A stretch of DNA of 63,807 bases, filler included, from Hausera hauseri (lineage: Eukaryota), in NCBI GenBank assembly GCA_046269625.1. It is 12 parts of 12 records of this genome, joined end to end, with 100 filler letters (N's around TTAATTAATTAA, not from the genome) between each part and the next. Parts side by side here need not be neighbours in the genome. Positions count along the whole stretch, not along the records: positions 17,093 to 23,125 come from JBJURY010150200.1; 11 more parts are not named here. One strand, 5' to 3'. Positions 4,055 through 45,769 of this stretch are shown in pieces. How positions within the stretch are numbered: position 1 is the first letter of the stretch; every line of letters begins with the position of its first letter. Both the position numbers and the translations under genes were made by a program. The notes beneath the pieces were generated by a model, which ran no database searches, was not told the origin of the DNA, and saw only the letters and a list, made by a program, of their open reading frames with translations.

Positions 4055-4252
4055 ATGAACGCCACCTCTCCTGACGCAATAGGCACATACGAGGTGTCGC
4101 TCAGGCAGGAGAAATGTTACCGATGGTACATAATCATTACGTGTATTGTAATTAGATATTGTTGAAATAATTAATGGGAATATTTGTCGATTGATTCGAA
4201 TTATTAGTTGTTTATTTGATATTTCTGCGATAAGAATTGTAAAAAGAATGTG

Positions 4253-4983
4253 AGTAGTTAGAAAGGAGGACATGACCCCAAGCCCCCCCCTCCCCGGGAA
4301 GGAAAGTAAGCAATCAGCGCAGGACACGTCATCGGGGGAAAGAAAAGTGGCAAATGATAGGAGAACACGTCATCGCGGGGTGAGGGAAAAAATGGGGTAA
4401 ATTGGGTTTCACTATTCCCACCCCTTTTTGAACAAAGGATTTTCTGAGGTAGATGGGGTTTCACTATTCCCACCCCGGAACAAAGCTGGGGCAGTCGTGG
4501 TTTCACTATTCCCACCTCCATTTTGTTTTGCAAAGTTGTGAAAAAAATGTACACTATGACAAAGCACAAGACAAAAATAAGACAAAGAAGTCTGTACAAA
4601 TATTTATTACAAAATATTTACGCAATAATTTTCATAAGCTACACTATGGTTTTTATCAACCCAAGGCGTTTGTCATCGAAGGGATCCAGTGCTTTCTTTT
4701 TCGATCTAATTGTCATGAGCTGGTGGTTTTTACTACCAATTCGCTCCTGATCTACCACAGTGCTGCAACTGGTTTCATACGCCTGTAACTAGTTACTGAA
4801 TTGTAAGTCTGTTTGCATCAGGTTTATGCGCTTGCACTTGAGCACTGGTTTGGATTGGGTTTTGAGGGCATATGATTTCGGACGTAGGAAAATCGCCTCC
4901 TGATATTGAACGCTGCCCTTGCTTTCATCTTTGAATTTACCAATTACAGAAGCGAAACGAGTCGAGTACAGTGGATCACTTTT
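4253..4983 (-). mobile_element. Maverick/Polinton terminus (AGTAGT end, GC-rich TIR) plus the 3' end of protein-primed PolB
   Basis: agtagt at 4253; three subterminal ggtttcactattcccac repeats (~4404-4516); minus strand ~4620-4983 reads VIGKFKDESKG...EAIFLRPKSYAL...KKKALDPFDDKR, the pPolB C-terminus. Confidence 0.8.
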
Positions 4984-9154: not shown

Positions 9155-9435
9155 TAATTGCGAACGGGAAATCCCTTAGAGTCTCGAACTAACTGCAAAC
9201 GACTCGATGCAAAAGATTGTCTTAGTAGAGTATAGTATGTAGCACTGTTCTCACGTATTGTTATTGGTAAAATTGTAAATGTGAATTCCACCAAAGTCAC
9301 TTCCCAGGCTCCCTGGCGTAAGCAGAGCGGCTCGTCCAACGCCACTGTAAACCGTTCAGCAGTATTGTTGTTGTTGCCTTTGTTGTCATGTTGTGATAAT
9401 CTGTTACTATCAAGTACCGAATAAATGCTCACCAT
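9155..9435 (-). pseudogene. Maverick/Polinton minor capsid (penton-like) N-terminus
   Basis: SVLDSN...NTAERFTVALDEPLCLRQGAWEVTLVEFTF fits the Polinton penton start LpSn...nt..F.v.L...l.L.g.WeV.L.E; lies next to the integrase. Confidence 0.7.
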
Positions 9436-10466
9436 TTAATCTGTGATACAAATATCCAACTCTGTGTAATGTATGTATGAACCTTTGCCACGTGAACGTA
9501 GAATTTCCTGAATAAGATACACATAAGGTTTTCCCGGTAGTACTTGCAGTTCCTGTTCGTAAAATTTGTCACGTATTTGGTCACCATTTTCATCTTCTAA
9601 AACGTACATAACAGGTTTTTGTTTTGTATTGATTGATGAAATTCGGAAAATCTCATTACTCCAGTTCTGATTGAAATTCTTAATGAATGGTGTCGTACTC
9701 AGTTTTGAAATATGTACATAGTTCCCTATTTTTTACTTGGGCCGTTTAATTGGTCGTCGTTGTACTCGGTTGTGATAAAACCACATGTTGGTAACTTCAA
9801 ACGGCCGTAATCCACTGATTCTACGATGTGTCGAATGATTGTATGCATGAATAATATGGGTAATAGATCTACACAGCGTTTACTGCCCTGCTTTGTAAAG
9901 AATTTGTTTATTCAGCCGCGTAATGTTCGATTAAATCGTTCAGCGAGTGCAGCCTTCTATTGTGAAAACAGAGTAGTGGTTTATACCGAACCTGTTCAAG
10001 GCCGATGCGACATGCGAGTTGTAGAATCCTTTACCCAAATCCGTTTGTAAATGCTTCGATGGGGTTGTTGTTGTTGTTGTGGCTGGTTTATTACTTTGTA
10101 AGCAGCGTTGGCAATCTCTTTACCGGATTTAGATTTTGCGACAATTGCACGTACAAAATGAATAAAAATATCAATACATGTAATCACGTACCGTTAATGC
10201 TGGCGTACGGAATTATTTCCGTCAGATCCATTTGGCAAAAATTATTTACGCCTGCAGCACGGTATGCATGAGTTGGGAACCATTTTCCTACCGGTTTGTT
10301 TGAGCTGTATGACAACTGCTTCCCCAGCCAACGTTGGATTTGTCGCCGACTCTGCCGTACAGTCTTTGCCAGTTTGTCGACGCCAATATACTCGACGAGA
10401 TGACGCGGGTCAAACCGCACATTGCCCATTGTCGGTTTTGTCGATGGTGTCGGTTTTTCTTGCATT
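9436..10466 (-). pseudogene. Maverick/Polinton retroviral-like integrase
   Basis: FDPRH..YIGVDKL...WLGKQLSY; QMDL; ITCIDIF; KAALAERFNRTL; GNYVHISK...NWSNEIFRI...YVLEDENGDQIRDKFYEQELQ; many stops and frameshifts. Confidence 0.9.
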
Positions 10467-10574
10467 ATAACAATCTGAATGAAACAATAATGTAATTTTC
10501 GGTAAACTGGGACAAAAAGATGAAAGCCATGTACCAATATCGCTAAATCATCATATACTTACCGTCATTGTTTA

Positions 10575-10915
10575 TACTAAACTGTTTCAGCAATGAGTCT
10601 ACCCACTAAAGACGTGGCAACCAGTCGAACTGCACTAAGAAAGCCGTCATCTTGCTGGTACATGACCTATGCTTCAGTCGCTTGCTACGAGAGGTTAGCA
10701 AGGCTAGTGAGACCTTTGCGATACTTCAGTAAAATCCGCTTTCTACTACCAATGTCAACGTGACCCACAACGATATTGTATATAATTTCCATTAAATCGT
10801 CCATTACAAATTGCAGGAATGATCGTAGCACGATTCGTTTATGTCTCGATAGTGCTTTAAACAAAGCAAAAATGTACGGTTGACTACGTTTGAAACGCAT
10901 GTTTCGTCCGTGCAT
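10575..10915 (-). pseudogene. Conserved small Polinton protein (PW / protein X-like)
   Basis: Helical ORF LMEIIYNIVVGHV...KYRKGLTSLA; read-through gives MYQQDDGFLSAV, similar to the Q.GGFL motif; lies between ATPase and integrase. Confidence 0.55.
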
Positions 10916-11132
10916 ATTGATGCACTGACGACGTAGTTGTTTATAATCGTTGCCATTTTGTGGATAATTTGCGTCTCACTGCTGACGTTGTTCGATTAAT
11001 TGCTTAACTGTGACAATACGTTTTGCTGTACTTGATACACGTCTCTTTTTTACACCTGTTTGGTTGGTTCACGTTTATCAATTGTTTTTCGGAAATTTTG
11101 CTTTTGGTTTCACTCTTACTATCATGTCGATT

Positions 11133-11766
11133 TTAGAATTTGTTTATAGACATGTACTCCTTTTGGATTGAAAATATCTGTTTGTACACGCATGTTATCT
11201 TGACATTGTTGTGTAAAGTCAATAAATTGATATCTATGCGCCTTGTTCGTAGCATCATGATATGCATTCATCAAGTAGGCTCGGTTGTGAAAAAATGCTT
11301 GTCATGCAACATAATCAATGATAGTCTGATCACAGGAATTTTTGAACAACACCAACTAGTGTACGTTTAAATTTCTTGTTCGATGCTATCCGCATGATGG
11401 AACATGTTTTGCGAATTGAAAATAATCGTCGTGTCGTGCAATCTTCGTGAACAGTTTGTTGAAGTCGGTTTGTTTAGTTGCTTTCTGAAATAAATCGTCA
11501 ATGACGATAAGGTCACCGTTGCGTAATCTCTCAGACCAGTTTTTATAAAACCCATCAATTACCGTTATCAATTTTAATTTACAAAATTCCTGATGTATCA
11601 GACCGGACTCACCATCATCACCAACACCCTGATGTCAGTAAATGTGATTGTACCGGGGTGAATGAAACATGCCACGGTAGTTCTGCAATATTTTACACAC
11701 AAAGTGTGTTTTTTCACTTCAACTGGGGCCTACAATCTGGACAATTGCATCATTCTGCAGCTTCAT
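11133..11766 (-). pseudogene. Maverick/Polinton A32-like DNA-packaging ATPase
   Basis: Walker A IVGPS*SEKT, Walker B LIVIDDL, LFTKIARH, LVLFKN. Confidence 0.85.
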
Positions 11767-11853
11767 CTAAATAATACAACCTTTTCTCACATAATTTGTT
11801 TATAATCATGTTACGCACATATAAATAGCCATAATATAAACACTGTTTCCATA

Positions 11854-12279
11854 ATGTTAGCTAATATCAACTATCGCGGACATGTTACTGAGAGTGACAT
11901 TAACACATTACTTTTTAATCAATGGAAGCCGAGGCATTATGTCCTCAAGTGTCCACCGGATTTTACATGCATAATATTTTAATCGGGAAAGTGCCTTATT
12001 ATGGGTTGTCGCAAACCAATCACAGCAGACAACAGTAAACTACTGCCATTCAGAATTGTCATTAACCAAATCCAATAAATAACAGAAAAGACTCATTTAG
12101 GCTGCCCATCAATCAGTCTGTACAAATTATCAACGGCCACTGAATGTACGTATGAACCCGAACTGTTTTCTGCACTTAGACTGACATTATTTCTCCCACT
12201 TTGTGTCAATATGTTTAGCAGTGAAAAAATTGTTGTACTCCGTATTCGGACAATGTACTATAAACCGAATATTAATTAA
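11854..12279 (+). pseudogene. TATA-binding protein (TBP)-like gene inside the Maverick; intronless, two in-frame stops
   Basis: Single frame: MLANINYRG...CIIF*SGKCLIMGCRK...TYEPELFSALRLTLFLPLCVNMFSSEKIVVLRIR, matching both TBP repeats (LIFSSGKMVCTGAK and YEPELFPGL...LLIFVSGKVVLTG); absent from the ORF track because of the stops. Confidence 0.75.
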
Positions 12280-12738
12280 ATTAAAAACCACATAAATGTT
12301 TTACTGAATCAAAATAATGTACTCTGCACAACACCAGCAATCTATAAATACCATTCTCATGCTCATTCAGACATTACTGCCATGGAAGGCGACGATAAAA
12401 CGATTCTACTCAATGATGATAGTGGTTGTGAAAATAATGCAAGTTCAGATTGGTCGTGGTTGTTTGGCTACAAAAAGGATAATTCTAATGTCAAATTGCA
12501 GGGAACGAAAACAGAACCTGTCCAACAAATAGAAAAACCGTATGACAATTCTAATGTCGATTGTCTGGAGGACAATTATGATGTCGATTATCTAGAAACA
12601 AAAAAGGAACTTGCACAGAAATAAACAAAACCGATATTAAAAAGGCAAGTAGCAATGATTGAAATACGTAAATGAAAATCAAAACTGCCTCGCCAAACAC
12701 CGACACGTTTACCGAAACAAATTTTTCGCAAGTATGAA

Positions 12739-13095
12739 ATGCATTTTCTACAAATGCCCGTATTGATTTCATTGAATGATCCAATGTCTATGTGCTCACC
12801 CAAGTACCGCTATCGTGTAAAACGGCTTTTGAATAAAACTTTTTATAAACTTTCTGATGCTCTGCATCAATTAAACCTGAATTTAAAGTGGAACGAACCG
12901 ACCTTGAAAGAGCAATCTCTCGTTTTACCAGCCACAAAAACAAAACTGTTTTATTTTATCGATCGCGAAATGTCTAACGTGCCTGATAATGATTTGCAGT
13001 ACCAATTAAACATTGAATTGCAAGGATACAAGGAAAAGGACGGAATCAAAAGCACGATTTGGAGTGTAGTTGAAGCACGCTTTAATTATCAATAA
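12739..13095 (+). CDS. Maverick accessory protein of unknown function (possibly OB-fold/SSB-like)
   Basis: 118-aa ORF within the co-oriented accessory block; ends LNIELQGYKEKDGIKSTIWSV. Confidence 0.3.
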   Translation: MHFLQMPVLISLNDPMSMCSPKYRYRVKRLLNKTFYKLSDALHQLNLNLKWNEPTLKEQSLVLPATKTKLFYFIDREMSNVPDNDLQYQLNIELQGYKEKDGIKSTIWSVVEARFNYQ

Positions 13096-13197
13096 ATATT
13101 GTTGTTGTTTTTCTTCTTTTATTGTTGCTTTTTCTTTCATGATTCCAATTGACGAATATAAATATACGTGTAATTTGTTTGTTAGTATTAGATGATA

Positions 13198-13570
13198 ATG
13201 TATGATGTAAAGATTATTTTAACTGATGAAAGTGCTACTGTACTGAGACGTGTTACAACAAACATTGCAGGCTACCATGTGTTTTCTAATGTCAATGTAT
13301 AACGACCGGTATTCTATTGGCGATCCCGTACGGTTACTATGGCCAACTGATTACAAAAATCTGATTGGCAAAGCTTGGACTTACGGTTGTGGTGGTGTTA
13401 TTGATTCAGACTTCCGTGGCGAAATTAAGGTGTTGCTGAAAAACCAATTCGGGGAAACGTATGCTTTTTTTGAAAAGCAGTGCAATCATCCAAATCGTTT
13501 TTCTTCGGTGTGAAGAGGCGGAATTCAGTGTAATATCACCAGAACAACGGGGATTGTTTTGTGTCATAAA
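13198..13570 (+). pseudogene. dUTPase (Maverick-borne)
   Basis: AGYHVFS (motif 1), GGVIDSDFRGEIKVLLKN (motif 3), AIIQIVF (motif 4), EQRG (motif 5), across frameshifts. Confidence 0.85.
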
Positions 13571-13712
13571 GCAACACGAAATGAACGCAATGAATTTGTC
13601 TTTGGTGACATGGACAATAAACCTGTGTTTAAAGATTGTGATGATAATAATAATATTAGTTAGTTGTTTGGTTTGTTCTATAAAGAAAAAATGATTTTTT
13701 ACATGATAGGTA

Positions 13713-14205
13713 ATGGCGACAGGATTTATAGATATTGAAGCATTCCAAGATAACAATGCCCAGTACATAATAAAGGAATTATGCATTATGAATGCCGGTA
13801 TTATTTTCAAACCGATTGTATACGTATTCAAGCCCGGTATTGTGTGGAATGACCTGACGGAAGATGCGAAAATTACAAATGGATTTCTCTTTTGACATCG
13901 TCATGGACTTCATTGGTATGAATATAATTCAACATTTTTTGTGTCGTATATTATTTGCGAAATTTGTAATCGTTTTGACGTTGAAAATACAATGTTTTAC
14001 ATTAACGATCAAATTTACGGACCAAAGTTTACGCAACTACATTCACACTTTCCCGAGTTGCGAACGACTACGTTTTTAACATCGAAAAACTCGCTGGTGA
14101 TGGTACTTGACAATGTTAGATGACCATATCGTGATCATGGACCACATTGTTTCATGCAAATAAATATACGTATTTGTTTTCTCTTATGTAAATATGGTAC
14201 ATGAT
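13713..14205 (+). pseudogene. DEDD-family 3'-5' exonuclease-like Maverick accessory gene
   Basis: FIDIEAFQD...YIIKEL...YVFKP...WNDL...NGFLF*HRHGLHW: ExoI D-x-E plus the KEL/FKP/HGL.W signature. Confidence 0.65.
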
Positions 14206-14570
14206 GACATTAATAAATGATCATAAAGACATAAATGATCTAGTTGACATTACTGTTTATTTAAGAAAACATAACTTTTGGGCATTGGTATATATTTCCG
14301 GAAAAAAGATATTATCATAACATGTGTCAACAACCAGTATGAAGACAGTTTCGAACTCGTAATATAACCCTCTAATGTTTACACTTGTGCAATATAAACA
14401 AAACAATTTGAACCAATGTGATATATATAGAGGCACCATTTCATTTCATTCTGTCTGTCTCGAAAAATATCTTTTCATGATGAAAACAATTCAAGTGACA
14501 GTTCTGCGAGTCTACAAGATACATTCCATAATCGCTCAGAACATCCAGGTTGTATAATGAATACAACTTA

Positions 14571-14757
14571 AGTAGTGGGGAAATGCCGATTCGGTCACAA
14601 TCCTCCCCCTCGGGACTTGTGACCGAATGGGCATTTCCAAAATCTGGTTTGGTAAGATATTTAAACTAAACAAAATTGTGGAGTGTGACCGAATGGGAAT
14701 TTCCCCAATCAGGTTTGGTAAGACATTTAAACTAAACAAAATTGGGGAGTGTGACCT
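14571..14757 (+). repeat. AGTAGT-initiated terminus-like block with a 22-bp hairpin and a 66-bp tandem duplication
   Basis: ggaaatgccgattcggtcacaa / ttgtgaccgaatgggcatttcc (21 of 22 complementary, 14579-14638); 66-nt unit gtgaccgaatggg...ggagt twice from 14619. Confidence 0.6.
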
Positions 14758-15804: not shown

Positions 15805-16959
15805 TCAAAATTGCCGAGACTGTAACGTCCGATTAGACAGTGGACTCGATACTGAGGCGTTCAAATTAGACAAGGCTTTGTGATTTTCACAAACAGTGGA
15901 TTCCGTTTTACTGTTATGGTCGAATGGTAACGAATTCGCATTCTGACCAAATGACGTCACATCATTTGTTGCACTGTTTTCATTACTCCACGAATTCTCC
16001 ACAAATTCCATTCGACTGGTTTTGTTTGAATGGTGGCGATGTACTGAAATGTTGTGTCCTTCCATTTGCTCAACAACCTCCACGTTCGGGCTAACTTTAC
16101 TAACAGCAGTTTGTTCGATTTTATCGGCAGAATTGTCGTCCAACAATTTCGTGGATAATGCACATTCTTCATAATCTTTAATCAAACACGCTATATTCTC
16201 TAAAGCATCTTTGAACTCATCCTCCTCCATTCCTTCGCCGACATACCAATGAACGTAAGCTCTTTTTTGAAACAATATCTGAAACCGAAAAATGCTCTGT
16301 AACAGTGCATCAGTAATACAGGAATTGTTCGACAGAATGGAAACGATCTTGTCGGACTCACCAAAATGACTATCGTGAACGTGTATCGGTGACCTTTGAC
16401 ACAGCATTACTTTAACCCCAGTCGGACACCAGTCGACGAATGTTAGAGTTTCGTGAAATTTCAGTCGAGCTACGGTTGAACGAACGTCAACGGAGTTGAC
16501 ATTTCCTCGATACATCAAACAACAGGCTAACATTTTCCCACCGATGGGGTCACAACTCAACAGTTGTGATTTGCTCGTTAGAGCTTCTCGAGTTATGCAA
16601 AAGACGGAATTTGGCGAATGCATTTGCGTACTCGGACTATTGACCGGAGCCAAACTGCAAATGGGAAAATGCATTCGGGGATACGGTACGATGTTGTTGA
16701 GAATCTCTGTTGTTGATGAACTGTGATCACTATATCTAACGGATGATGTAAATACGTTAAAATATTGAGCCATTATTCGATTTATGTCGTTATAAGTCGG
16801 TTTAGCTTTCATCGGTGCTTCTGTAGCAATCCGAAACAATGATTCATTGTCAGCTAAAAATGTAACATCGGTTTCGTCAATTGTGTAGTGTTTGGTTAGA
16901 ACACTGTTGTATGGTTCAACTAATACTGGTGAAGAAGGGAATGATGGGTGGATGGACAA
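15805..16959 (-). CDS. Divergent alpha-tubulin, C-terminal two-thirds (5' part lost at the contig end), with a ~118-aa tail extension
   Basis: VEPYNSVL, DNESL, PTYNDINR, VPYPRMHFP, MLACCLMYRG, FVDWCPTG, KRAYVHWYVGEGMEE, KDYEE; uninterrupted ORF. Confidence 0.92.
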   Translation of the reverse strand: MSIHPSFPSSPVLVEPYNSVLTKHYTIDETDVTFLADNESLFRIATEAPMKAKPTYNDINRIMAQYFNVFTSSVRYSDHSSSTTEILNNIVPYPRMHFPICSLAPVNSPSTQMHSPNSVFCITREALTSKSQLLSCDPIGGKMLACCLMYRGNVNSVDVRSTVARLKFHETLTFVDWCPTGVKVMLCQRSPIHVHDSHFGESDKIVSILSNNSCITDALLQSIFRFQILFQKRAYVHWYVGEGMEEDEFKDALENIACLIKDYEECALSTKLLDDNSADKIEQTAVSKVSPNVEVVEQMEGHNISVHRHHSNKTSRMEFVENSWSNENSATNDVTSFGQNANSLPFDHNSKTESTVCENHKALSNLNASVSSPLSNRTLQSRQF

Positions 16960-17092
16960 ATGGATGGTTGGATGGATGGATGGATGGATGGANNNNNNNN
17001 NNNNNNNNNNNNNNNNNNNNNNNNNNNNNNNNNNNNTTAATTAATTAANNNNNNNNNNNNNNNNNNNNNNNNNNNNNNNNNNNNNNNNNNNN

Positions 17093-17899
17093 GATCCGAA
17101 ATTAATTTGGTAGGCGTATAATGTTCTGATACATTTTCACGTATCCTCGAATTGGTTTCTGATTTGTCCATATATCTTTTCCCTGTGGTCTTATTGAACT
17201 TTAGTTCTTTAATTTTAATAAAATTACAATTTCTTCCAGAAGAAGGTTCCCAAATTATAACCGAGCTTCTAAAAGCGCAAGTTCCGTCTTGTAAATGACA
17301 TTTTTGATTCTCTGTATATAATTTGGTGACACTATGGAACATTACCTTCTGTGATAGCATTTCTGATTCGTAGAAATTCACAACCACCACGTTTGACTCT
17401 AATCCTTTTCCGTTATAGTACTCTGCTCAATTACAATATCCGCTATGCATATCTGGTCTTCCGGCTACTACTTTATATGCCCTGATTATTTTTTTGGCTG
17501 CATCTCCAATTGCATACTATCCCATTGTATTTTCCCAGTTTCCTTGGCTTGCTTGTATTGTTGGCGCTCTAAGTTCATCGGAATTATTGGAGTCGTTAGT
17601 TTGATTATAGATGAGTATCCATGAACCAATCCACAGTAATAAATGCTACGCGATCGTCACAGCATGCGTTCCATTCCATCTAGCGATATCAATTCTTGCT
17701 GCTGATAGAGGAAATAATTTTTCTCTTTTGTCTCCAACTTGTGTAGTCTAGCATCTTCGCATACTTCCAGATCCATTAAGGAATATCTCTGTCCTAGCTT
17801 AAACTTATCGCAGTCGTAGACGGTTACAGCGTCTATATGCTTAATTATCATCATCAAGGTGAGTAGGCTAATTAGCCAATTCGATTCATTTTCCGGCAT
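17093..17899 (-). pseudogene. Chuvirus-type (class III, gB-like) envelope glycoprotein, N-terminal ectodomain
   Basis: Signal peptide WLISLLTLMMIIKHIDA, then VTVYDC...YSLMDLEVC...LYQQ...RSIYYCGLVH...GYCN*AEY...NVVVV...CHLQDGTC...IIWEP...CNF, the Cys and motif order of chuvirus G and Anakin-type env. Confidence 0.7.
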
Positions 17900-18297
17900 C
17901 CAACGTCCGCCGTTGTCAAATTACGTAACATATCATCGAATTTATTACCGTTTCGCCTGTCTTCTTCGCTGTCAAATAGTCTTGACCAATTTACTTTGTA
18001 GGGCAATCTTCTTGCTGATTTTCGTGCTAAGCTTACCGCTCTATTGATTTTATTTTCTCGATTGGGGTTTATTTTAATAGCTAGGTATAGTAATACTTTC
18101 CTCAATTTCTCATTGGTATTTTCTATCATGATCTTTTCTATTACTGCTTCGCCGGTCAAATTACTCTTCGATAGCTTAAAACGTAAGCTTCTCATCATTC
18201 TAGCTACGTTGAATATTATCTTTTCTCTTTCATCTAATATATCGCCTTGAAAGCTTGAATAATTTACAATTCGTATTAAATTCTTCATTAACCCGCT

Positions 18298-19038
18298 TCA
18301 TTCTTCATTGTTTGTACTGAGGGTCGAAATCGACATCTGTTTCAGTTCCTTAATTAGTTCTCCATTGTAATCGACTCCTTCTCGCGTCTTCCTAGGCCTA
18401 CCGACTGAACGTTTCGGCCTTTGCCCTTTTGTTGTTATTTCGCTGAGTGGTACTAAATTTATATCGTATTGTTCCTTATCTTCATCCATTTGTAAATACT
18501 CAAAATACATTGCAGCATCTCGGACTCCCATAATTTGTCCTACGCATTGCTCTTCCTTGGCCTTACGCGTGGTTTCCTCTTTTGTCTGTTCATTAGCTAT
18601 TGTTACTACTATGCGGTTTGTTTCGTCGGGGATAATCCCGACGTCTATTAATTGTTCTAGGTCGGCGAGTGTTCTACCTATAAAGTAGAATGTGTAATTT
18701 AGCTCGTTTGCTCCGCCATAGTTTAATAACCATTCTCTTACTTCTTTTACGTAGGAATATCTAGTTAGCTCGCATTCTTTTACATTTATCCATTCGGATG
18801 ACACCATTACTTTTATTGTTACCTTGGGTATAGCCCTTAAAATTTTATAGTATTTTCTTATAAAAATTTTCGGCACCGTACTACAAATCGCATTCTCACT
18901 AGATAATTTAGTTAATGTCGGAATAAGTTGTTTTAACTTACTTTCATTAATGTTTTCGTTAATTAGTTCAATAAAATCCTTTTCAGTTAGCGCTGATTCT
19001 AGTTCATCTCCACATTGAACCTCCTGTCCTGCGGGCAT
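18298..19038 (-). CDS. Accessory ORF with a ubiquitin-like domain (~18595-18828) and an AT-hook (~18384-18414)
   Basis: VTIKVMVSS...YVKEVREWL...FYFIGRTLADLEQLIDVGIIPDETNRIVVTI is ubiquitin-like (LIF.GK.LED..TL.DY.I); KRSVGRPRK is an AT-hook. Confidence 0.6.
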   Translation of the reverse strand: MPAGQEVQCGDELESALTEKDFIELINENINESKLKQLIPTLTKLSSENAICSTVPKIFIRKYYKILRAIPKVTIKVMVSSEWINVKECELTRYSYVKEVREWLLNYGGANELNYTFYFIGRTLADLEQLIDVGIIPDETNRIVVTIANEQTKEETTRKAKEEQCVGQIMGVRDAAMYFEYLQMDEDKEQYDINLVPLSEITTKGQRPKRSVGRPRKTREGVDYNGELIKELKQMSISTLSTNNEE

Positions 19039-19603
19039 GTTTCTATGTCATTTAGTCGTACTGGCGACATAGGTTTTACGGCCAGTATTGCGTCGAAGTA
19101 TGCATCCAATTCCGGTCTATTTCCGACATTTGGGAGTCCAGCGCCTACTAAAGCTACACTTGTTCTTTGCGCGTTTTCTCGAATTTCTTTCAATTTTGGC
19201 TGTATTTTCTTTATCTGCGTAGTTCGAAAACCCACTCCATTTCCACAGGCATATTGAATCCCTTTTGGTAATAATCTGTTAATTCAATAATTACATCTTT
19301 TCGATATCTTTGTACGAATTCTCACTTATTTTTGATTTCTGATTCTGTAAAAGCATATTTGTTTCGGTAAATTTTGAGTTCTTTTGCTAGTTCATCCAGC
19401 CTCTTTGCTCTTTGTTTTGTTCTGATACATGTTTCCTCCACTTGATGTAATTTGGGCATCAATTGCCTCATCTTCTCATCGTTAATTTCTGCCATTTCTA
19501 CCAATTTCGTTTATGACTTTTGAGTCTGGATCCAATGCATCCGATAATTTCTTTACGAACTTAGATTCTTGAAAACTAAGATGTTGGTCATTTCCTACCG
19601 TTA

Positions 19604-20866
19604 TCAGTCGGTATGGAAGTTCTGATCTGATCCGGTCATCCATTCTTGAGGTTTATGCAGAAATTTTATCCTGTCCGTTAAAGTTGCACGTTGTTCCGGG
19701 CAAATATCTAGGGTTTTGATGTCTTGGACAGAGATTTCGTTAATAGGTTTATCTGTTAAATGTTGAACTCCTTCTAGTCGGACCGTTCTTAATATTGGGT
19801 AAAAATTGCAAGTCATATTCCGCTTTTGGGTAAAATTCGTCTCTTCGACCATTTTATAGATTTCTTCCAGTATTGTTGCTTCTTGTTTCTTCTTCATAAA
19901 ATTAAGTTGTAATGCTTCAAAACGCGTTCGGGTGCATATTTCTGCGAGTATTGTATCTAAATTACGTGCGCTTTCTTCTAATTGCTTCTTTACAGAAGGC
20001 TGGCTCTCTGGGAATTCTTCCTTACGGCTTTCCATTAATTTGCTTAGTCGCATCATTAATTCGGACCATTTCGACAGTTGATTGGCGATTATTGGCTTCG
20101 CAATTATAGCCTTATCTAGCATCTTATATGCATCTTTTAACTCATCGTCCGGCCCTCTTAGGAAATCCATAATCCGACCGACATAACTAAACGCATACTT
20201 ATATGCGTCCCATTCTACAATACAAGCCTTTACATATTGAGTCTCTTGGTGATTTGGGGACATAATTCGGTTCCTTAAGCTACAAATCTGTGCTCGCATG
20301 TTATTTTCTATCTTAATTCCATTTTCTAGGTTTGTATATTGTTTTGGCGTAGCTAATGCGATTTTTATCATCTCCGTCAAGGGAAGAATGTCTATCGGGT
20401 CTATACCCAATATTTCCAAATCAATATTACTTCGATGGTTAACCGGTTTTTCCCTAAGCTGATTAATCATTGCGCAACGAATTTCATCCATCGTACGTTT
20501 TAAATTTCGGACCACTCTCTTCAATTTTGGGCTTGTTTCTAAGGTTGACAATAGCATTTGCGCTTTAGTGACTTTTGCCTCGACACTATCTTTATTTTTG
20601 CTCCATCCTTCTGAAAATTCTACTACGCTTTTAATCCATGATTCTAATTCATGCTTCCATTTTAACAATGTTTCAGGTAATACCTCTTCAGGTTGTCTCA
20701 AGTCGATCGCTTCGGCAAGTTTTCCTTCACTACATAGTTTCAAACTTTTATATAACCTCTCAGCATACTGCTGTTCTTTTAAAGATATATCTACTTGTTC
20801 GCTAATCTCCATAAGCCTTTCTAAATTTTGCTGCAGTATTTCTGGATCGTGGGATCTAATTCGCAT
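19604..20866 (-). CDS. Helical/coiled-coil accessory protein of the giant element, unknown function
   Basis: 420-aa open frame, E/K/L-rich heptad-like composition, collinear with gag. Confidence 0.5.
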   Translation of the reverse strand: MRIRSHDPEILQQNLERLMEISEQVDISLKEQQYAERLYKSLKLCSEGKLAEAIDLRQPEEVLPETLLKWKHELESWIKSVVEFSEGWSKNKDSVEAKVTKAQMLLSTLETSPKLKRVVRNLKRTMDEIRCAMINQLREKPVNHRSNIDLEILGIDPIDILPLTEMIKIALATPKQYTNLENGIKIENNMRAQICSLRNRIMSPNHQETQYVKACIVEWDAYKYAFSYVGRIMDFLRGPDDELKDAYKMLDKAIIAKPIIANQLSKWSELMMRLSKLMESRKEEFPESQPSVKKQLEESARNLDTILAEICTRTRFEALQLNFMKKKQEATILEEIYKMVEETNFTQKRNMTCNFYPILRTVRLEGVQHLTDKPINEISVQDIKTLDICPEQRATLTDRIKFLHKPQEWMTGSDQNFHTD

Positions 20867-21599
20867 TTTCTTTAATTCATCGGCGTTTTTCCGTGAACGT
20901 CGGACTTCCCATTTCTTTGGATCGAAATCATCAATATTTGCCTTTCTTCCTCACTAGTGGAAAGTGAGCAAATTTCGTTAATTTCACTTATTAGATTTAT
21001 AGGTTCCCTTACCTCGGTAGGTGAAAACGAATCAATTTCTGGTGTAACTAGGTTATGCTTTGCGTCGCTTTCTATAACGATATCCGTATTTTTCGTTTCT
21101 TCTATTTTTTCCCTAGTTATTTTGGAGCGTGAACGACTTCTACGTTTCGTCTTTGGAGAAGGGCTATGGCCTTTATTTTTTGTAATTTTAAGTATTAATA
21201 GTTCCATAAATTCTTTTTCTGCTGTATCGTCATCAGTAGACTTATCTACCTTTTTAACCATGAACTCAGGCTCTCCCTCTAAGTCGACTGCTGTCGATGT
21301 GCCCGGTTTCTCAGACGGTTTATTACTGGTCGGAACACAATTTTTCCGTGTCATATCACTTCGCTTTGGTGCTATTGCATGTTCTTATTCAGTTTCTAAC
21401 TGTACCAGACCACGATATACTTCTAATAGTCTCAGCTTGTCTCCATATTCTTTTCTATCCATCAGAATTTGTGGGTTAATAGTTTCAGGCTGAGCATCTA
21501 GAAATCTTCGTAAGTTTTGTATGTCGATGATAGTACCTGTGTCTCCGCGAACACCATACTTCGCTTCTAAATTTTCATTACTTCTGACCATACTAGTCT

Positions 21600-22833
21600 T
21601 GTTTGGCTCAGTAAATGAAACGCTACGTGGGTTTGGACATGACCTTAAAATATGTCCTTCCTTACCGCAAGTAAAACAGACTAAATTTTCATTTTTTCCG
21701 ATTCTCTGTTGACCGTCTTCATTTACAGGTGAATTAGGCCGATTCGAACTTCAATTGTACTGATTCTGTGCGCTAATTGCACTTCTTCGATTATCATCAT
21801 CACGATTCCAGTACTTTGAACCTTTGCAATTTCCCCTATTCTATCCCAGTTAAAATCCGATCTATTTATATTTTGTTCATTAGTGTAGTTATTGCCTCGG
21901 CTATTTCTGTAACTGCTATTATTATTTCTACTTCCATAATTTTTGTTACCCGTAAATTGTCTGTCGTCTCTTCCACGATTGGCGTTCCGATTTCTGTCGT
22001 TGCAATCACTTCGATCATTATTTTTATCGTTTCTATCATTGTGTCTGGCATATATGTCAAGTGCCATTTCTAAGTCCTGAGCTAATTTGTAAAGTTTCTT
22101 TAAAATTTTCAGGTCTAGCCAAAATCAATTGTTTAACAAAATATCGTGACCAGATACCATAAATTAATTGAGTCGTCATCATGACATCTAGATTTGGCAG
22201 TGTTGCCTTTTCTGCGGCATCGCGTTCCGCATCTGTTTTGGCTCTAGCTACATTGGCTGTACGCAGTGTGTTTATGTAACTATTAGCCAGTTTCGTCAAC
22301 GCAAATGCGAATTAGGTTACTGATTTACCCTTTTGTTGTATTCTATTCTGAAATGCCATAAGCTTCTGCTGCGGCGTTATTGTCGGTAATAATTTACGGC
22401 TTTGTGCTCATACCAGGGAGGACCAAGATTTCTTCTTATCGTTTGTGAGCTCACTATAAGAGTCAGCGGTTAAGTTTTTCAAATACAACGACAAGCGTTT
22501 AATCATTTCTTCGGGAGTAAGACTAACACCTTGTGCGTGCAATTTATAAGTTCTCAAAAATTTATTAAGCCCGTCCGGGTCACCATCGTATGCCGGCAGG
22601 TTCAGAGAATCACAAGTAAAGATGTCCAGTTTCTGCGCTACTGGTGGGCTATCTGCTGCCATATTAGTTGCGTAATTTATCTCTAAATTTGGTTTATTTA
22701 TTTTGTGCTTCACACGTAGAATTTTAAATGGCTTATTTTGCTCGACGACGTCTAATTTGATTCTATTTTTTGAATTCGAACGTTTATCTACTTTTTGCGT
22801 ATCTCTATATATGTTTCGACGTGCTTCACGCAT
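21600..22833 (-). pseudogene. gag: Gag (capsid, N/R-rich linker, CCHC zinc knuckle)
   Basis: LPAYDGDPDGLNKFL...LSLYLK...AFQNRIQQKGKSV; knuckle VCFTCGKEGHILRSCP at 21637-21678. Confidence 0.85.
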
Positions 22834-23040
22834 AGGTGAATTATCGTTTAATACACGGTTTGCTTTTGACTTATCAATGCTTGTTCTCGATTAAAATTTG
22901 CGTTACTTATCCCGTTCAATAAACTTATATAGCCAATTTGATTTAGTTTCAACTATATCGAATTATTTGGTGTGAATGGCGCTGTTCGCCAATATATAAT
23001 TATTTAACTCTCAAAAGTAAGTCTAGAGAGGTACAAACTG

Positions 23041-23057
23041 TCCTGCTAGGGTCGTCA
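23041..23057 (-). promoter_or_regulatory. Putative tRNA-Arg-type primer-binding site
   Basis: Minus strand TGACGACCCTAGCAGGA resembles TGGCGA.C..GCCAGGA and lies ~200 nt upstream of gag. Confidence 0.4.
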
Positions 23058-23225
23058 AATATTATATATTGGGGTGGCCCTTATACAACTCCCACTATAA
23101 CAATATCTACCCTTGAAATTTTTAGNNNNNNNNNNNNNNNNNNNNNNNNNNNNNNNNNNNNNNNNNNNNTTAATTAATTAANNNNNNNNNNNNNNNNNNN
23201 NNNNNNNNNNNNNNNNNNNNNNNNN

Positions 23226-23809
23226 ACCTCTTCGGGTTTTTCTTCATCATCACTTACTGGGTTAAAATCACATTTTCTCAGTCTTCCTCCCTTTTTCTTA
23301 GTGCCTATTTCCATAGTGATTTGGTAAGTATTTCCTGTAAGTAATCCATAATCTACAACATAATCATTATCGACGGCTGTTCTACCGTAAACATCTGTTT
23401 TCGCTATTATATTAGTCTCAAGGTCTAATTCGTCCAATACTTTTCTTCGGAGATCCGTAAATTTGGTGAACATTCCTGCTGTGACTTCAATTACTTGTTC
23501 TCGTTTGTTAGTTTTGATTTCTATATTTATAATATATGGTTGCTTTCTTCTATGTTTCCGTCTTAAGTCTCTTCCTAAGGTCTTTAATGATTTTCTTGCA
23601 GCTAGGAAACAAAACATCTCATCCCTTGTCAGTGGTATAAGTAATGATGCGCATTCTATCCGGTTGTTTAATGATAGTGTTTCATATTGTCTCAAAGCAT
23701 CCCATACTTCATTGGGTGCTGAGTCGATCAATTGTAATTTAGCCTTAATTGTTTCTACTACTAACTCTGAATTTTCACCATATACTATGGATCCTGGTGG
23801 AATATTCAT
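23226..23809 (-). CDS. Accessory ORF with a ubiquitin-like domain (~23300-23540)
   Basis: INIEIKTNKREQVIEV...KFTDLRRKVLDEL...VYGRTAVDNDYVVDYGLLTGNTYQITM. Confidence 0.6.
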
Positions 23810-23905
23810 CTCCGGGATAATTTTTGGATTTTTGATTGGTGATAATGTATTCTCGGGATACTGGAGCGTATATGGTATTGATATCAGGTCATCATCTAAA
23901 ATTTC

Positions 23906-24916
23906 CTATATCTCTTCGTCTGTTATCTGATGTTCTTTCTTAGATGTACTTGGTTGCATGGAATCCCAGATATTTTCAAATAACGTTGGTCGTTGTGGTG
24001 GAACCGTTGGTTGGATGAATGGTGCGACTAATCTATCATCATATGGGTCTATCCATTCCCCGGTTGGTCTAATTCTGACAAGTTCTTGCGAATATTTATC
24101 AGCATCCATATCTGGATATCTTTGAGTTATTGGTTCGATTACCGGGATTGGTCTTGCTTCTTCAGTTTTCTCTAATTCTTTTATCGCTGGAAAAGCTATT
24201 TGTAACGTCTTTCGGCTTTCTATTATCCATGGTACATTATATTCCACTCGTGTCGTTTTCAGGTATTCATCTAAACATCTTTGTGCCATAATTTCCGAGT
24301 TATGACCATTATATAGGTCTAAGCATTTGTAGTTCCTATTTGTCTGTTCCAGATCATAGATAGCGGTTAGATTTTCGGGGTTTATATTCAATGTATTCAA
24401 CAATTCTGGTAACTGACGACCAATAATCGTTTTACCTGGTAAATATCTATCCATAAATTCGCTTATTGATTCTTGTCGTTGCGGATTGAATCGTCTACTA
24501 TATTCAGTATACTTAGTAGTATCCGGTAGGTTTGGGTATACATGAATATTAAGGATTGTTTTTCCTTCCAAATTTTTGGCAGTGACTTGAGTAAGTCCTT
24601 TTTGGTCTCCTTTAGTTATACATCTACCAGTAAGAATTATTTCACTGTCTTGCATTACAGGCTCATCCACAGCTAATATTGGTATATCCTTAAGCAATTG
24701 TATTAAATATACCGCGCAGTTATCCAAAGGTTGAATCTGATAATCTCCTTCATAAGGATAGTTAGGAAGTATCTTAGTTTCTTTAGAAACTATTACTGTT
24801 TTATTATTAATTTGCAATCGAGCTTCTCCTTGGTTAGTAATTATAGCACAAGGTGGATCCTTTCTTTTGATTCGAATATCAGTCCTTTTACGGTAAATCT
24901 TATCGATACCTCCCAT
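23906..24916 (-). CDS. Accessory ORF: cupin-like domain plus dead REX4-type DEDDh domain (~24255-24645)
   Basis: IITNQGEARLQI; IILTGRC...LTQVTAKNLEGKTILNIHVYP...YLPGKTIIGRQL...IYDL...GHNSEIMAQRCLDEY (compare gHsSveDA.a.m.LY). Confidence 0.6.
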   Translation of the reverse strand: MGGIDKIYRKRTDIRIKRKDPPCAIITNQGEARLQINNKTVIVSKETKILPNYPYEGDYQIQPLDNCAVYLIQLLKDIPILAVDEPVMQDSEIILTGRCITKGDQKGLTQVTAKNLEGKTILNIHVYPNLPDTTKYTEYSRRFNPQRQESISEFMDRYLPGKTIIGRQLPELLNTLNINPENLTAIYDLEQTNRNYKCLDLYNGHNSEIMAQRCLDEYLKTTRVEYNVPWIIESRKTLQIAFPAIKELEKTEEARPIPVIEPITQRYPDMDADKYSQELVRIRPTGEWIDPYDDRLVAPFIQPTVPPQRPTLFENIWDSMQPSTSKKEHQITDEEI

Positions 24917-25949
24917 ACAAATCGATCCTTGTTCAGCTATATCCGCGAACTCTATTCTTTCAGTTTTCTTGTCCTCAAACAGTTTATCTCATTTCTGAAC
25001 AATGCTTATGTCCATGCGCTGCAACACTGCCTCTGGAATTAAGATAGTATTGCATGTCATTTCACGTTGGAGATATCCATCGTTCTTATATAAAGGCCTA
25101 CTTGGAAAAATGAAATATAAAGGTCCTTGACGGTTAAGTTTAACCTGGTACTCTTGTTGTAGATTATTCAATTGTTGTAACAATGTATCTTCTCTTTTCC
25201 AATGGTCATTTGGTAAATTAAAATTCTGATCTACACTAAACGTACCAAAAATATCGGATTCCTTCAATTGTATTTCTTTAAACAACCATGGCAATTCTAC
25301 TCCAATTATAAGTTTTCCACAGAGTATTTGTCTAAGATGTTCATAGCATTTTTTTTCTCCCTATACACATCTTCCAATTCAATTATCAGATCCCCCTCGA
25401 TATTCTCTATTCTTATTTGGTTAATTTTTGATTTCTGTTTTTGTTCGTTAGTTTTATCTACTGCTACAAAGGTTGAAAGTAAATTTTTTATTTCTTTAGT
25501 TTCTGGCCATAACATGTATGGAAGTGTATTTCTTTGGATATCTGGCACTTTTCGTTCTGCCTGTTCCAATTGTTTTCTAGTTATGAAGGGTTTTTCCAGG
25601 ATAGTATTATTGGTTGGCAGTTCAGGTGTTAGTTGATGAGATTCCGTTACAGATTTTGTCATTAGCAAACCCGTAAAAGCTGATTTAGTTTGTTCATTAA
25701 AAGTTACTGAGCGGCGAGGCGAAGTGTTTCTTTCGTCGCTATTGCTTTTTCTGTTATCCGACAAATTTCCTTTTTCTCTCGTAGGACTACTATAAGGTGG
25801 TATTGCCGAATCCAGTTTTCTCTTATTGTAATTCCTAGAATGTTCTGGCGTCGAATTCCTATTATACCTTTATGGAGAAACACTCCTATTTGATGATATT
25901 TCGTTTCGTTTGAAATTGTAGTCCGACGATCGAGTATATCTATCATTAT

Positions 25950-27850
25950 TACCATTTAATCCTGGGGAAGGAGTTCGGTTTCCGCCTCTTGAAGGGTATG
26001 GACTAGGATTTCTATTATATCTATCCGATTCTTTTCGAGTCGGAGTGTAGTCGCGTCTTGTATCGTAATTTCCCGATCTTGAATCATTATAATCAGTTCG
26101 ATTATCGTTTCTAGGACTATGTCTTTCTCTACTATCACCCCGTCGATTATCTCTTTCTCTCTTATCACTTCTATTAAAATTATTATATCTTTCACGACTA
26201 TCCTGTCTTCTAAACCTTTCTCAACTCTCACTTCGCCTATCATTAGGATAGTTAGATCTTACTTGTTCCCGTCGATTATTTGGATATCTTGTTCGACTAT
26301 CGTCTCGTAGATATCGTGCTTGATTATCATCCCGTGGATATCGTATTCGACTATCATCTCGTTTATAGTATGAATTTCTATCCTCATAACGCCCAAAATT
26401 TCGGTCGTTGCTATATTTTTCTCTACTAGGGAATCGACTTTTATTATCATTTCTGTCTCTCGAATCACCTCGTGTTCTATCATATCTATTATCGTTTCGC
26501 TGTCGATCATCATAGTTTCCCCTATTTTGTTGATACTGCATATCTCTTTGGTTGCTATTATAATTTCTGGATGCTTGATTAAAACTTCTTCTTTCCGGGG
26601 TATTGCTTCGTTGAAATGTGTTGTTATCTGATCGGTTGGGACTTTGACTTCTCAATGAGTCCCTCCAAGGTGAATTACTACGATTTGGTACATAAGGTCT
26701 TACTAGTAATGGCGTCGTAGCTACTGCTGCCATTTGCATTTGGTTAGTCCATAAAGGTGTTTCATCTATTCGCGTTGCCATTTTTCTAGTATAGTCTATT
26801 AATTCATTAATATTGTTGGCAGTATGAAACTTAACTCCTTCTCTTAAGGGTGGTAAAAGTCCTAGTACAAATTGTTTCATTATCATGGCACTGAAAGCAT
26901 TTGCGTTATGACCAAAATATCTAGTCATTGCCGTTTTAAATCTATTAATGTAGATCAACACTTCTTCATTGGGCTTCTGCTTACAATTTTGGAATTTCAG
27001 ATGTCGATTCTCTTGTATATTAACCTGTTGATTTTGTAGAATTCTTTCTCGGTGTTGTAACCAAGTTTCGTTTACTCGTGGGGGTAGACGCGTTATTGCC
27101 ATCCTTAAATCATTATTCACATGTACTTGTAGGAGTGATATTTTCTTCGCGTCACTCCAATGCATGGCAGTGGCCAGAGAATCATATTTATCTAAGAAAT
27201 CTTCCAGGTCCGATACTCGTCCTTCATACGGTTGAAGGCGGGGAAGTGTTTGATATTTCTCTTCTCTTCATTGCAGTCATAGATAATATTATTATTGTTA
27301 GAATCACAGTTATATCTGTTTCGAGGAGCCGATGGCTCTCGATTATCCCTTTGTGGGTCCATGTTGTCGCTATCGATGTCAGAAATTTCACAAGACACTG
27401 AGCTTACATCTATTGAAAATTCAGATGTATGTACCTTTTCTTGACGTCGGGTTATTGCTTCTTCTGTCCTTGCTTGCTCAAGGCGTTCATTCAATCGGTC
27501 TATATCTCGTATCAACGTCTCTATTTAATTTCTAGTACAATTATTTCCTTCTTGAATCTGTTTCTGTTCGTTTACTATAACTGTTACGTGGTTCTGCATA
27601 TCATTTATCCTTTGTCTTACTTGTCTTTCATTGTTATCTATTTGTTCTCTGTTTCTATATAATGTAGCTATATTATCGATAGTTTGTTGTCGAATATCAC
27701 GCATTTGTCTAGAATAGATGCTAACTTCTTGTGCGAGTTGACCAGTTTTCTCATCCAATTCATTTAAACCCATACTATTATCATTCACTTTTTGCTCTAT
27801 TTGGGTGATTCTTCCTTCAACTTCGTCTAATCTTATACCATTATTCATAA
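25950..27850 (-). pseudogene. gag: Gag with an N-terminal coiled coil and a long Arg/Asp/Asn-rich C-terminus lacking CCHC
   Basis: HWSDAKKISLL...FQNCKQKPNEEVLIYINRF...KQFVLGLLPPLR, typical retrotransposon capsid motifs (Q..NE.V..Y..RF, F..GL). Confidence 0.85.
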
Positions 27851-28050
27851 CATCTGTCTCTATAGTTACTCCTTGTCGAGGTATATCCTGTATTTCTTCT
27901 ATTAGTTGTCGTATACTGTCGTCTGTTCGATCCTGTCTTGATCTTAAATCNNNNNNNNNNNNNNNNNNNNNNNNNNNNNNNNNNNNNNNNNNNNTTAATT
28001 AATTAANNNNNNNNNNNNNNNNNNNNNNNNNNNNNNNNNNNNNNNNNNNN

Positions 28051-30839: not shown

Positions 30840-33800
30840 GGGGAATGGAACACAATATTTGTTCAAGCGACGTTAAATCATCACCAACAACTTCTCCCTG
30901 CTTACGATTTTATCTCGATAAGGAAGGATTGGCATCCGAATTGCTCCAAGTTCATAAAGCATAGGCAATATCTACCGTTTTAGTTTCTTAACAGGACCAA
31001 GCATATTCTTTATTATCTGTTTTACTATGAGATACTTATAAAAAACTAATTAACGTTTCAGCATTGCTAACCAGTGCTACACCGTATGATGCAATACAGC
31101 AGGGAATTCTAAAACTAACTGATCCGCCATACGAACACTTAATTAAGAAACATTTCGTATGTAATCAGTTGGGTAACTCCACGCCGTCAGACCATCTTAG
31201 AAAAGCGTGATGCGAATTGAATCGACTGAACTGTGGGGTACCAGAAAACGAAGCATTTTCCGTCAACTTTTTCTTCCAGCATATATCCAAATGCTTTTAT
31301 CTATTGTCCAATGAGATACAAAATTAGACGATTTTGCAGCTGCCGCTGACAGAATTTATGAAACCTTAAAAACTGCACAAATGCCTACTATGCTGACCTC
31401 TCAGATACAGGTCTAAAATAAACTAGTTACGTCTACAGTCGATCAGTTACATCATTCACATAATTCTTCAAAAACCCTTGTTTCCCCGTCTTTTCACACT
31501 TCCCAGATGTAATTGGTAATAAAAGTCAGGAAAATAGAACTCGTGTCTCTGAATAACACCAAACAAGAAGATTGTATAAAAGTTCCCGTACATTTTCGGG
31601 TGCTAAGATTAACCACCAAGATTTACAATATCCAACACCCAGTAATTTGCAACAGTGATATGATAAGTGGTTTAAATTTTTCTTGAATGAAATCTCAATA
31701 TTGATTTAAACGACCCTCCAATGAAAACATCGAAACGAAAAAACAGGATGAAATACCAAAGTGTATTTTCTACGAAATGTCTAACTTTAACAGTAAAATT
31801 ACAATGAAAATGAAAGTAAAATTTCAATCAACAACTTGAAATGTTCATATTATCTTTAACTTGTTGTTTACTGTTAGAATTACTTTAAACAATATTGTTG
31901 TATTTACAAAAGGTCAGGAAAGTTCGGCATTTATCCATAAAACCACCGGCAATACTTAGTCTATCGGTTGAATATGACAGTCTGAATATGACAGTATTTC
32001 CAGTTGTAAATGCCATTGGAACTCGATGGTCTGATTATCCAAACTGAGGCCTTGAAATGTCTAGGCAAATCGAATTAATGTTTGTTTCACTTGTGAGATT
32101 CGCATTTCCCACTTGATATGTTGCATTGATATACGTATCGATAACATTCTCATTTATTTGCGCTTCTTTAACTAGAAAATCGATCAATTTACGAACGTGT
32201 CTTGCGGTTCAGATATTTTCCTTCACTGTAAATAATAATCCAAATCATTTGTTTTTTGAATATTTGAAACCTTCATTAGAACCACATAATTCAAAGCAAA
32301 CAATATACGAATTAATGTCGGTGAACGTTCTCAACATAATTTATCATTGTTGCGATAGAAACAAATCTCTGTCTAGAATGCATCACCGACCGTTGAACTG
32401 TTGGAAAACCCTTGACTTCGTTTTGAATTACCTTGTGGAAACATTTTATTCGGACTTCCAAAATTCATTTGAAAATAGATTTTGATGGAAGTATTCAAGT
32501 ATGTGATATTAAAATGTCGAATGTAAGCTTAGTTCAACGGCAAGATACTCCGAGGGAGAAAAACCAGGCCGCGGCCAACAGCGCAATCCGGGCGAAACCG
32601 ACGCACCCTCCAGTATCCGGCCAAAATGGGCCAGGGGGCCTCAAAGCATGGTGGGTACCACACAAGAATTCCATATATCAAACGGATCAGAAAATCTCAC
32701 TACAATCACCAATAGCTAACCTTTCAAATATGTTTAACGATTTTATTCATACCTAATCCATACAATATCGACGTACAAACGACACAATATACCGCCTCAC
32801 TAAACAAACCCCTCCAATAACAATTTAGATTCATTTGCTTCTATCGCACAAAATTCAAAGAAACTAGGAAATACTATATAGGATGCCGATTCTATAATAA
32901 ACAAAATTGTTACATTTTTCCGACATGTATTTTTCATTCTAAATATAGAAACGCTGCACAAAATTGTCTGAAAAGTTGTACGGACCAAAACAGTTATTTC
33001 ACAGAAGACAACGATCTTGAACAGTCAAGAAATCAAAATTATCCACACAAACCATATTTAAACTAACTAGCAAGCCCAAGCCTCCGGTAACCTTCGGTTC
33101 TGGCCTAATTACTACTTTGCAGATCCCTACTCTTCACAAAATTCAACATCTCCATACATATTTTAATAACAGCGTCACTTGAATCATCTCAAAACTCTCT
33201 CGTGGATTTTTAAGTCGATACTGGTTTTTCTATTTTTGTTTTTCCTTTAAGCTACAAAAATGACAATAACTGTCAAAATAGTAACGTACTTCTTGCTGCA
33301 AATGGTACTATAATACGTACATCCGGACACCGTTAAATATTATTCAATATCCATAATATCCCCAGTACATTCACTTAGACAGTAACTGATATCCAACAAC
33401 CATTCTTGGGGTCCGACATCTTTGAAGAATTTGAACTACTACTGCCACATGACACTTATTTAAAAGTCACAAATAGCAAACATTTAATTCAATCTAACTC
33501 TTCGCCAAAAGCACTAAAACCTTGTCCGAAGAACTGCAGAGTTGCTACAATTCATTAATTAAGATTGTTCCAATATTATTAACAAATCTCTAAATTCTAA
33601 AAGTCCATGCGAAGTATTTCACTACATAAACACAAGCTCAAACTTCCAATAACATAACGACGACGAGAGTTGACGCAAAGCTGCTGAACAAGAATTCCTA
33701 CAACTCGAAAAAGACGGTATAGTTAGGCGGTCTACATCACCCCGGACATATCCATTACATATGGTATCCAAAAAGGATAACACGATAAGACCCTGTGGAG

Positions 33801-45768: not shown

Positions 45769-45769
45769 A

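Follow-up and report, generated by a model that had tools for sequence, protein, structure and literature searches.

A chuvirus-type envelope gene behind gag and orphan cargo in a decayed, high-copy and likely Gypsy-type element of Hausera hauseri

The window analyzed here, a stretch of 63,807 nucleotides from Hausera hauseri (GCA_046269625.1), consists of 12 contigs of 4–8 kb, with the same N linker at each of the 11 joins. It has a GC content of approximately 36%, transposon remains are plentiful across it, and its appearance is that of a fragmentary animal assembly. The 6-kb contig at positions 17093–23125 (JBJURY010150200.1) carries, in transcription order on the minus strand, a gag-like region, a zinc knuckle, orphan cargo, and an envelope (env) glycoprotein gene. 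The glycoprotein sits at one end of the contig, which stops inside env at 17093. Past the artificial N linker at 16993–17092 (no strand) comes a contig that is no true neighbor, with a highly divergent alpha-tubulin exon bearing a long C-terminal tail (15808–16923, minus strand); this tubulin is 57% identical to the best of 65 matches (P0003) and 31–44% to the other 64. The distance from gag start to env start is 4763 nt, and approximately 3.7 kb of orphan coding sequence lies between knuckle and env. The coding strand is A-rich in eight of eight segments (A 0.34–0.41; env 0.37), and an Rfam scan returned 0 matches.

On its gag side, the contig starts in what is likely the 3′ end of a 5′ LTR (22995–23125, minus strand, as are all features of this contig), which we infer from a depth peak: in the public run described below, summed depth was the highest of 30 bins in 22951–23125 (21,205). 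A second LTR does not occur in the window. A stretch resembling a primer-binding site (22974–22991), recognized by eye, begins TGG, and the gag ATG follows some 310 nt further on. The gag itself comprises a capsid-like region with two internal stops (22060–22662), an N/R/D-rich low-complexity continuation in another frame, visible in translation and with no Pfam match (21726–22124), and a single CCHC zinc knuckle of the nucleocapsid type (21637–21678; PF00098, E 6.1e-6), whose pattern, CX2CX4HX4C, has one match in the three minus-strand frames. A charged low-complexity linker with one stop follows (20875–21636); it holds a GDTGT stretch, for which no protease family was matched up to E 10. The capsid-like region was called by eye and from a weak likeness to another gag, and it gave no relevant match in Pfam or PDB. 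That other gag, which is Retrotrans_gag-positive and lies on the contig at 23226–27950, is 21% identical to it, with the local score reached in 57 of 2000 shuffles and the global score in 1338 of 2000. Judged from sequence, we regard the predicted zinc knuckle as firm and the putative capsid identity as weak.

The contig at 23226–27950 (minus strand) appears to be a second A-rich, cargo-laden element. It has a coiled-coil leader, a Retrotrans_gag match at E 4.8e-4 (below cut-off), an R/D/N-rich tract, and some 700 codons of unknown cargo, with a ubiquitin-like-looking stretch that ends in a double glycine; there is no pol on this contig.

The composition of gag also bears on the class of element. 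BEL gag carries a triple knuckle. The gag described here has one, and neither a gag nor a protease family of BEL type was matched. The glycoprotein family to which env belongs is known from mosquito BEL/Pao elements, in which Anakin likewise joins a chuvirus-type glycoprotein to an LTR element, but on a BEL/Pao backbone (PMC7642597). A complete Anakin reads GAG-PR-RT-RH-INT according to that paper, whereas no PR-RT follows gag here, and an Anakin-like BEL/Pao element is in our judgment highly improbable. Assignment to Gypsy is likely, given the one knuckle and the weak capsid likeness, and the Gypsy-like character proposed in an initial sequence-only reading of this DNA gains support from the PF00098 knuckle and from the high-copy repeat described below.

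Between gag and env lies the cargo. A 448-codon open region, predicted to be all-helical (19607–20950), has no known relative, a search of 1.84 billion representatives giving 0 matches at E≤0.001; its single-sequence model is helical but of low confidence (pLDDT 40) and without structural match. The middle part (19002–19603) is broken by stops and frame changes and has no convincing Pfam match. It is followed by a 249-codon ORF (18301–19047) in which a ubiquitin/SUMO-like domain may lie at 18828–18589, as atlas and profile leads suggest. In the atlas, this ORF has a recognition of 2656, and several of its clusters, PF11976 among them, are ubiquitin- or SUMO-like, all scoring below 0.9. The ubiquitin-like segment and the similar stretch that ends contig 23226–27950, both picked by eye, gave a 21% alignment with a local score reached in 1 of 2000 shuffles. 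A profile made of the two sequences had five matches in PDB, the best being an unrelated enzyme (E 0.019) and three being ubiquitin-like domains (E 0.17, 0.61, and 1.2); the third of these is named by a cDNA id alone, and we take its fold to be ubiquitin-like. Pfam recognized no ubiquitin family in the segment, and PDB sequence searches with each of the two segments singly gave nothing significant. We treat the putative domain as a lead only.

The last cargo reading frame before env is a 141-codon helical ORF (17872–18297), in the position that a BCL2-like region occupies in Burro, a planarian Gypsy element discussed below. Its model (pLDDT 47) had no Foldseek match at E≤0.001, and its best VIA score, Z 6.2, was on generic helices; no BCL2 was among the matches listed, and the model is too poor to exclude one. 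PDB sequence searches with this ORF and with gag gave nothing significant, and no Pfam match to MATH, BIR, or ankyrin was found in the 6-kb contig.

Another stretch with cargo-like content lies at the start of the window (1–4400, plus strand). This coding stretch is A-rich and decayed, and it contains a hydrophobic segment, membrane-like in character, near 1300–1380, unknown cargo, and a RING finger at 3794–4051 (plus strand; PF00097, E 6.1e-5); it may represent the 3′ accessory part of another such giant element. The 77 nt at positions 1–77 recur exactly at 153–229. We considered the contig at 1–4983 as the C-terminal half of a similar glycoprotein and dropped the idea, having found no match to PF24664 and none to the contig at 17093–23125.

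The env gene is present in two pieces. Piece 1 (17492–17899) opens with an ATG at 17899 and comprises a hydrophobic leader and the N-terminal ectodomain. It matches Pfam PF24664, Monjiviricetes_fusion, at E 6.9e-8 and 31.4 bits, with a curated cut-off of 27; residues 10–128 align to positions 6–124 of the 653-position profile, and this was the one protein of 28 scanned that matched it. The sequence-only reading had called a chuvirus-type fusion glycoprotein here and had asked for profile similarity to a fusogen family, and this match bears out that call. Residues 7–19 form a hydrophobic stretch with a mean Kyte-Doolittle value of 2.05; the signal peptide was judged by eye and from hydropathy rather than by a predictor. 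Piece 2 (17094–17516) is in another frame, includes a stop at 17429–17427 and four cysteines, and is cut by the contig end. Alone, it has no fusogen family match in Pfam. The atlas rows for this piece (UvrD-like, unrelated) were discarded at a recognition of 2240, under 2300. A PDB sequence search with piece 1 gave nothing significant, and the description of the family as gB-like (class III) is taken from published work (PMC7642597; PMC13524379, section 14), not from a fold of this env.

The succession of motifs on which the glycoprotein call had been based is present and in order: YDC (17818–17810), RSIYYCGLVH (17650–17621), GYCN*AEY (17441–17418), NVVV (17393–17382), and CHLQDGTC (17300–17277), all on the minus strand. 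Across all six reading frames of the window, each of the three longer motifs is found just once. One detail differs, in that the tryptophan expected three residues past the last motif lies eight residues past it. Likewise, the proposed start at 17899 stands, but env is not one ORF: it has stops at 17659–17657 and 17429–17427, both TGA, and a frame change near 17495. We rejected a reassignment of TGA, since other copies differ at these positions and TAA and TAG stops break neighboring ORFs. The 269 env codons on the contig amount to about two fifths of the 653-position profile, and the full gene would be roughly 650 codons; because the contig breaks off after codon 269, the remainder of the ectodomain and the transmembrane anchor are unseen. 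The broken env of this copy cannot yield an env protein, which excludes the infectivity once considered for it.

Searches for homologues of the env pieces retrieved none among the 113 and 171 candidates scored; these covered proteins of up to 2000 residues, so that Burro-type polyproteins of 5000 residues were out of reach. Locus scans for relatives confirmed 0 of 10 and 0 of 13 stretches in viral contigs and 0 of 125 and 0 of 368 in metagenome contigs.

As proposed earlier, the start of env overlaps the end of the upstream ORF, by 28 nt (17872–17899), the upstream stop lying at 17874–17872. In this copy, env starts in a different frame from the cargo, with a stop of the env frame upstream at 17923–17921, and the two frames are related as by a −1 shift. 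Between 18000 and 17872, this copy contains no canonical slippery heptamer of the form X XXY YYZ.

Neither protease nor RT motifs were found in the three minus-strand frames of the 6-kb contig, and no pol family was matched there in Pfam. Because the contig ends inside env and what lies downstream is unseen, the absence of pol is valid only for the gag–env interval; with that scope, the earlier description of a glycoprotein placed after gag and accessory ORFs, with no pol in between, is accurate. One explanation is a non-autonomous LTR-gag-cargo-env-LTR element that lacks pol altogether, depends on a partner family for the polymerase that copies it, and itself supplies capsid and fusogen. The 4763-nt interval without pol would agree with this, as would the high copy number and the gag- or cargo-bearing contigs at 1–4983 and 23226–27950, which likewise show no pol. 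However, these contigs are of 4–8 kb and the elements of at least 10 kb, an absence of pol downstream of env is unobserved, and the described elements with env directly after gag have pol behind it (PMC13524379, PMC6431247). We consider a pol-less element unlikely.

Other remains in the window include fragments of ordinary Gypsy elements, namely a decayed RT/RNase H (33700–34815, plus strand) and a decayed gag knuckle with protease (59922–61214, minus strand), for neither of which a link to the env element was shown. Decayed Polinton/adintovirus-like genes lie at 9155–14600, where integrase- and packaging-ATPase-like genes were recognized by eye and Pfam left traces of a TBP-like (E 3.8e-4) and a dUTPase-like (E 1.6e-3) domain. 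A decayed Polinton-type, protein-primed DNA polymerase B was seen by eye at 45031–48500 (plus strand), with no Pfam match. DNA transposons are represented by an open, 685-codon, hAT transposase-like ORF at 51003–53057 (minus strand; DUF4371 and PF05699 below or near cut-off), Harbinger-type DDE pieces at 41405–44039 (plus strand), where the minus strand carries an ORF with a MADF domain, and a mariner-type transposase fragment at 62901–63371 (minus strand; HTH_48, E 9.7e-7). A 103-nt near-exact direct repeat occurs at 50666 and 53405, and a degenerate tandem array with a 16-bp period occupies 57838–58753.

To find how gag, cargo, and env occur together, we relied on one public run of 15,501,002 records, possibly from the source sample; no RNA run was among the public runs listed as containing the stretch. 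Contigs of this run aligning to the stretch number 15,786 and cover 30 of 30 bins, 540 of them at an identity of 99% or more, 1858 at 95–99%, 6035 at 90–95%, and 7353 under 90%, with changes that are mostly transitions. None among the contigs listed spans the whole stretch. Only 0.02 of the aligned sequence runs on unlike. The bins at the junction of cargo and env have summed depths, which are not copy numbers, of 1867 and 5171, values that fall among those of the cargo; the minimum, 240, is reached in the low-complexity stretch of gag. Within these limits, gag, cargo, and env behave as a single high-copy repeat, and env not as a separate viral insertion.

This coverage bears on an alternative, a jingchuvirus glycoprotein gene that had inserted on its own beside a retroelement fragment. 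In favor of it, many glycoproteins of this type are flanked by Gypsy fragments without clear capture (PMC10084718, the chief published ground for caution), and the last two env bins are deeper than the cargo (13,653 and 19,234). However, a conserved gene common to subfamilies would also raise the depth of env. The glycoprotein shares strand and base bias with the rest of the contig and overlaps it at its start, coverage is gapless over the junction bins, and no viral L or N family was matched upstream. Repeat coverage continues over all 30 bins, where the sequence-only reading would have taken a break in copy number as evidence of a separate insertion. While the endogenous Jingchuvirales glycoproteins of PMC10084718 include PF24664-type proteins near Gypsy sequences, the one described here is part of a coherent, high-copy unit, and we consider a separate insertion highly improbable.

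The same data weigh on the possibility that an ordinary gag-pol-env element lost its pol by deletion, in this copy or in a subfamily. Gag-pol-env is the commonest order (PMC13524379), and joints that skip parts of the element do occur among the copies. However, no dominant junction is among the loose ends and joints listed (a further 1783 loose ends and 98 joints lie outside the listing), little sequence runs on unlike, every bin is covered, and the interval is filled by cargo as a continuous reading path. A deletion of pol is very unlikely.

Comparison of the copies also clarifies the state of this one. Within each of the two env stop codons the other copies differ from it, and of the 11 length differences listed, 9 coincide with its frame changes, the break in env included, the other two being in the leader; the breaks therefore look specific to this copy. 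The overlap of cargo and env has no row among the length differences listed for other copies, which suggests that a separate env frame is the state of the family, although this is a weak test, as the gag frame change near 22100 is likewise without a row and single contigs show joints around 17892–18006. The earlier idea that one frameshift parts env from the polyprotein would be in line with Burro, where env is in frame, but not with this missing row.

The order of genes, the family of env, the abundance of the repeat, and the decay of this copy are direct observations. We think it probable that this is a decayed, Burro-like Gypsy element of the order GAG-cargo-ENV-POL, with pol likely beyond the end of the contig. 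Against this reading stand that a pol linked to the element is unseen and that no relative was retrieved. Burro/GYPSM1 are giant Gypsy elements of dugesiid planarians, near 30 kb in length and present in thousands of copies, of which some are known to have decayed, with stops and frameshifts (PMC6431247). Burro encodes a Gag with two to three knuckles, Smc- or midasin-like, MATH, Ubi2/SUMO-like, and BCL2-like regions, and an in-frame env that matches mononegavirus fusion glycoproteins, followed by PR-dUTPase-RT-RH-IN (PMC6431247). Compared by description rather than by sequence, our element resembles it in having a CCHC Gag and long cargo, and the weak ubiquitin-like signal before env, which is below significance, would fit its layout. 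It differs in its one knuckle, in an env that lies in a separate overlapping frame rather than in frame in a giant polyprotein, and in cargo without a detected homologue and without detected MATH, BIR, or ankyrin. In Burro, env stands between gag and protease; here it follows gag with no protease between, and the contig then ends. Burro env is also likened to gypsy Env and to paramyxovirus-type proteins (PMC6431247), and it may thus differ in family from the env described here. Because the in-frame env and the number of knuckles of Burro are not found here and pol is unseen, we do not file the element as Burro. We found no paper on an A/T skew of Burro and no published Burro-like element with a separately framed env, Repbase and subscription papers lying outside the search.

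The gB-type errantiviruses described in PMC13524379 are a second point of comparison. In the sense of that paper, the element has a gag with a knuckle and a gB-type env ectodomain after a hydrophobic leader. The gB/chuvirus-type env after gag, the signal peptide before the ectodomain, and the multicopy state are shared with these elements. Multiple copies were found here, mostly less than 95% alike, which places the element outside the >98% class of PMC13524379. Unlike the gB-type errantiviruses in the available parts of that paper, our element has approximately 3.7 kb of orphan cargo separating its knuckle from env, and this copy is broken. Arthropod Gypsy elements (PMC13524379, section 14) carry the same type of glycoprotein, but their env is described next to pol, with an Anakin-type glycoprotein beside Gypsy pol in 114 elements. 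The GAG-ENV-POL cases reported there are non-arthropod: gB-type elements of this order occur in Nematoda, Bryozoa, and Platyhelminthes, and the supplement has at least 10 bryozoan and at least 9 flatworm rows of them. An ancient acquisition of env is argued for in the same paper. An independent capture of env and an unusual gene order had been put forward for this locus; neither is supported as new, since a chuvirus-like env with Gypsy pol and the order itself are in print (PMC13524379, PMC6431247).

If the Burro-like reading is correct, intact members of the family would carry pol after env and would build their particles from a Gag-cargo polyprotein. The fusogen, gB-like and of class III, would enter the secretory route via its N-terminal hydrophobic leader and become membrane-anchored, and it would allow particles to cross from one host cell to another, for instance out of the soma into the germline. 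Drosophila errantiviruses are known to move between host cells. For gB-type elements, the entry route is given as unknown in PMC13524379. Since the frame of env differs from that of the cargo and overlaps it, we propose that env translation would depend on splicing, on re-initiation at the ATG of env, or on a −1 frameshift; with no canonical slippery heptamer in this copy, the first two are no less plausible than the shift. By analogy with what has been proposed for Burro, host ubiquitin or the control of cell death would be the target of the putative ubiquitin-like cargo.

Published work already covers both the capture of a chuvirus env by Gypsy elements and the gene order, and the copy itself is dead, so the value of the finding is modest unless the family proves to lack pol. 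There is a small chance, and we rate it as no better than that, that the family is either an abundant, enveloped satellite (LTR-gag-orphan cargo-gB-type env) that lives on a borrowed polymerase or a Burro-grade giant with a separately translated class III env outside dugesiid planarians. The element would enlarge by one family the sparsely sampled class of cargo-rich, env-before-pol Gypsy elements, which has been detailed only for planarian Burro. If intact members exist, they would provide a test case for how a gB-type env upstream of pol is translated and for the role of ubiquitin-like cargo.
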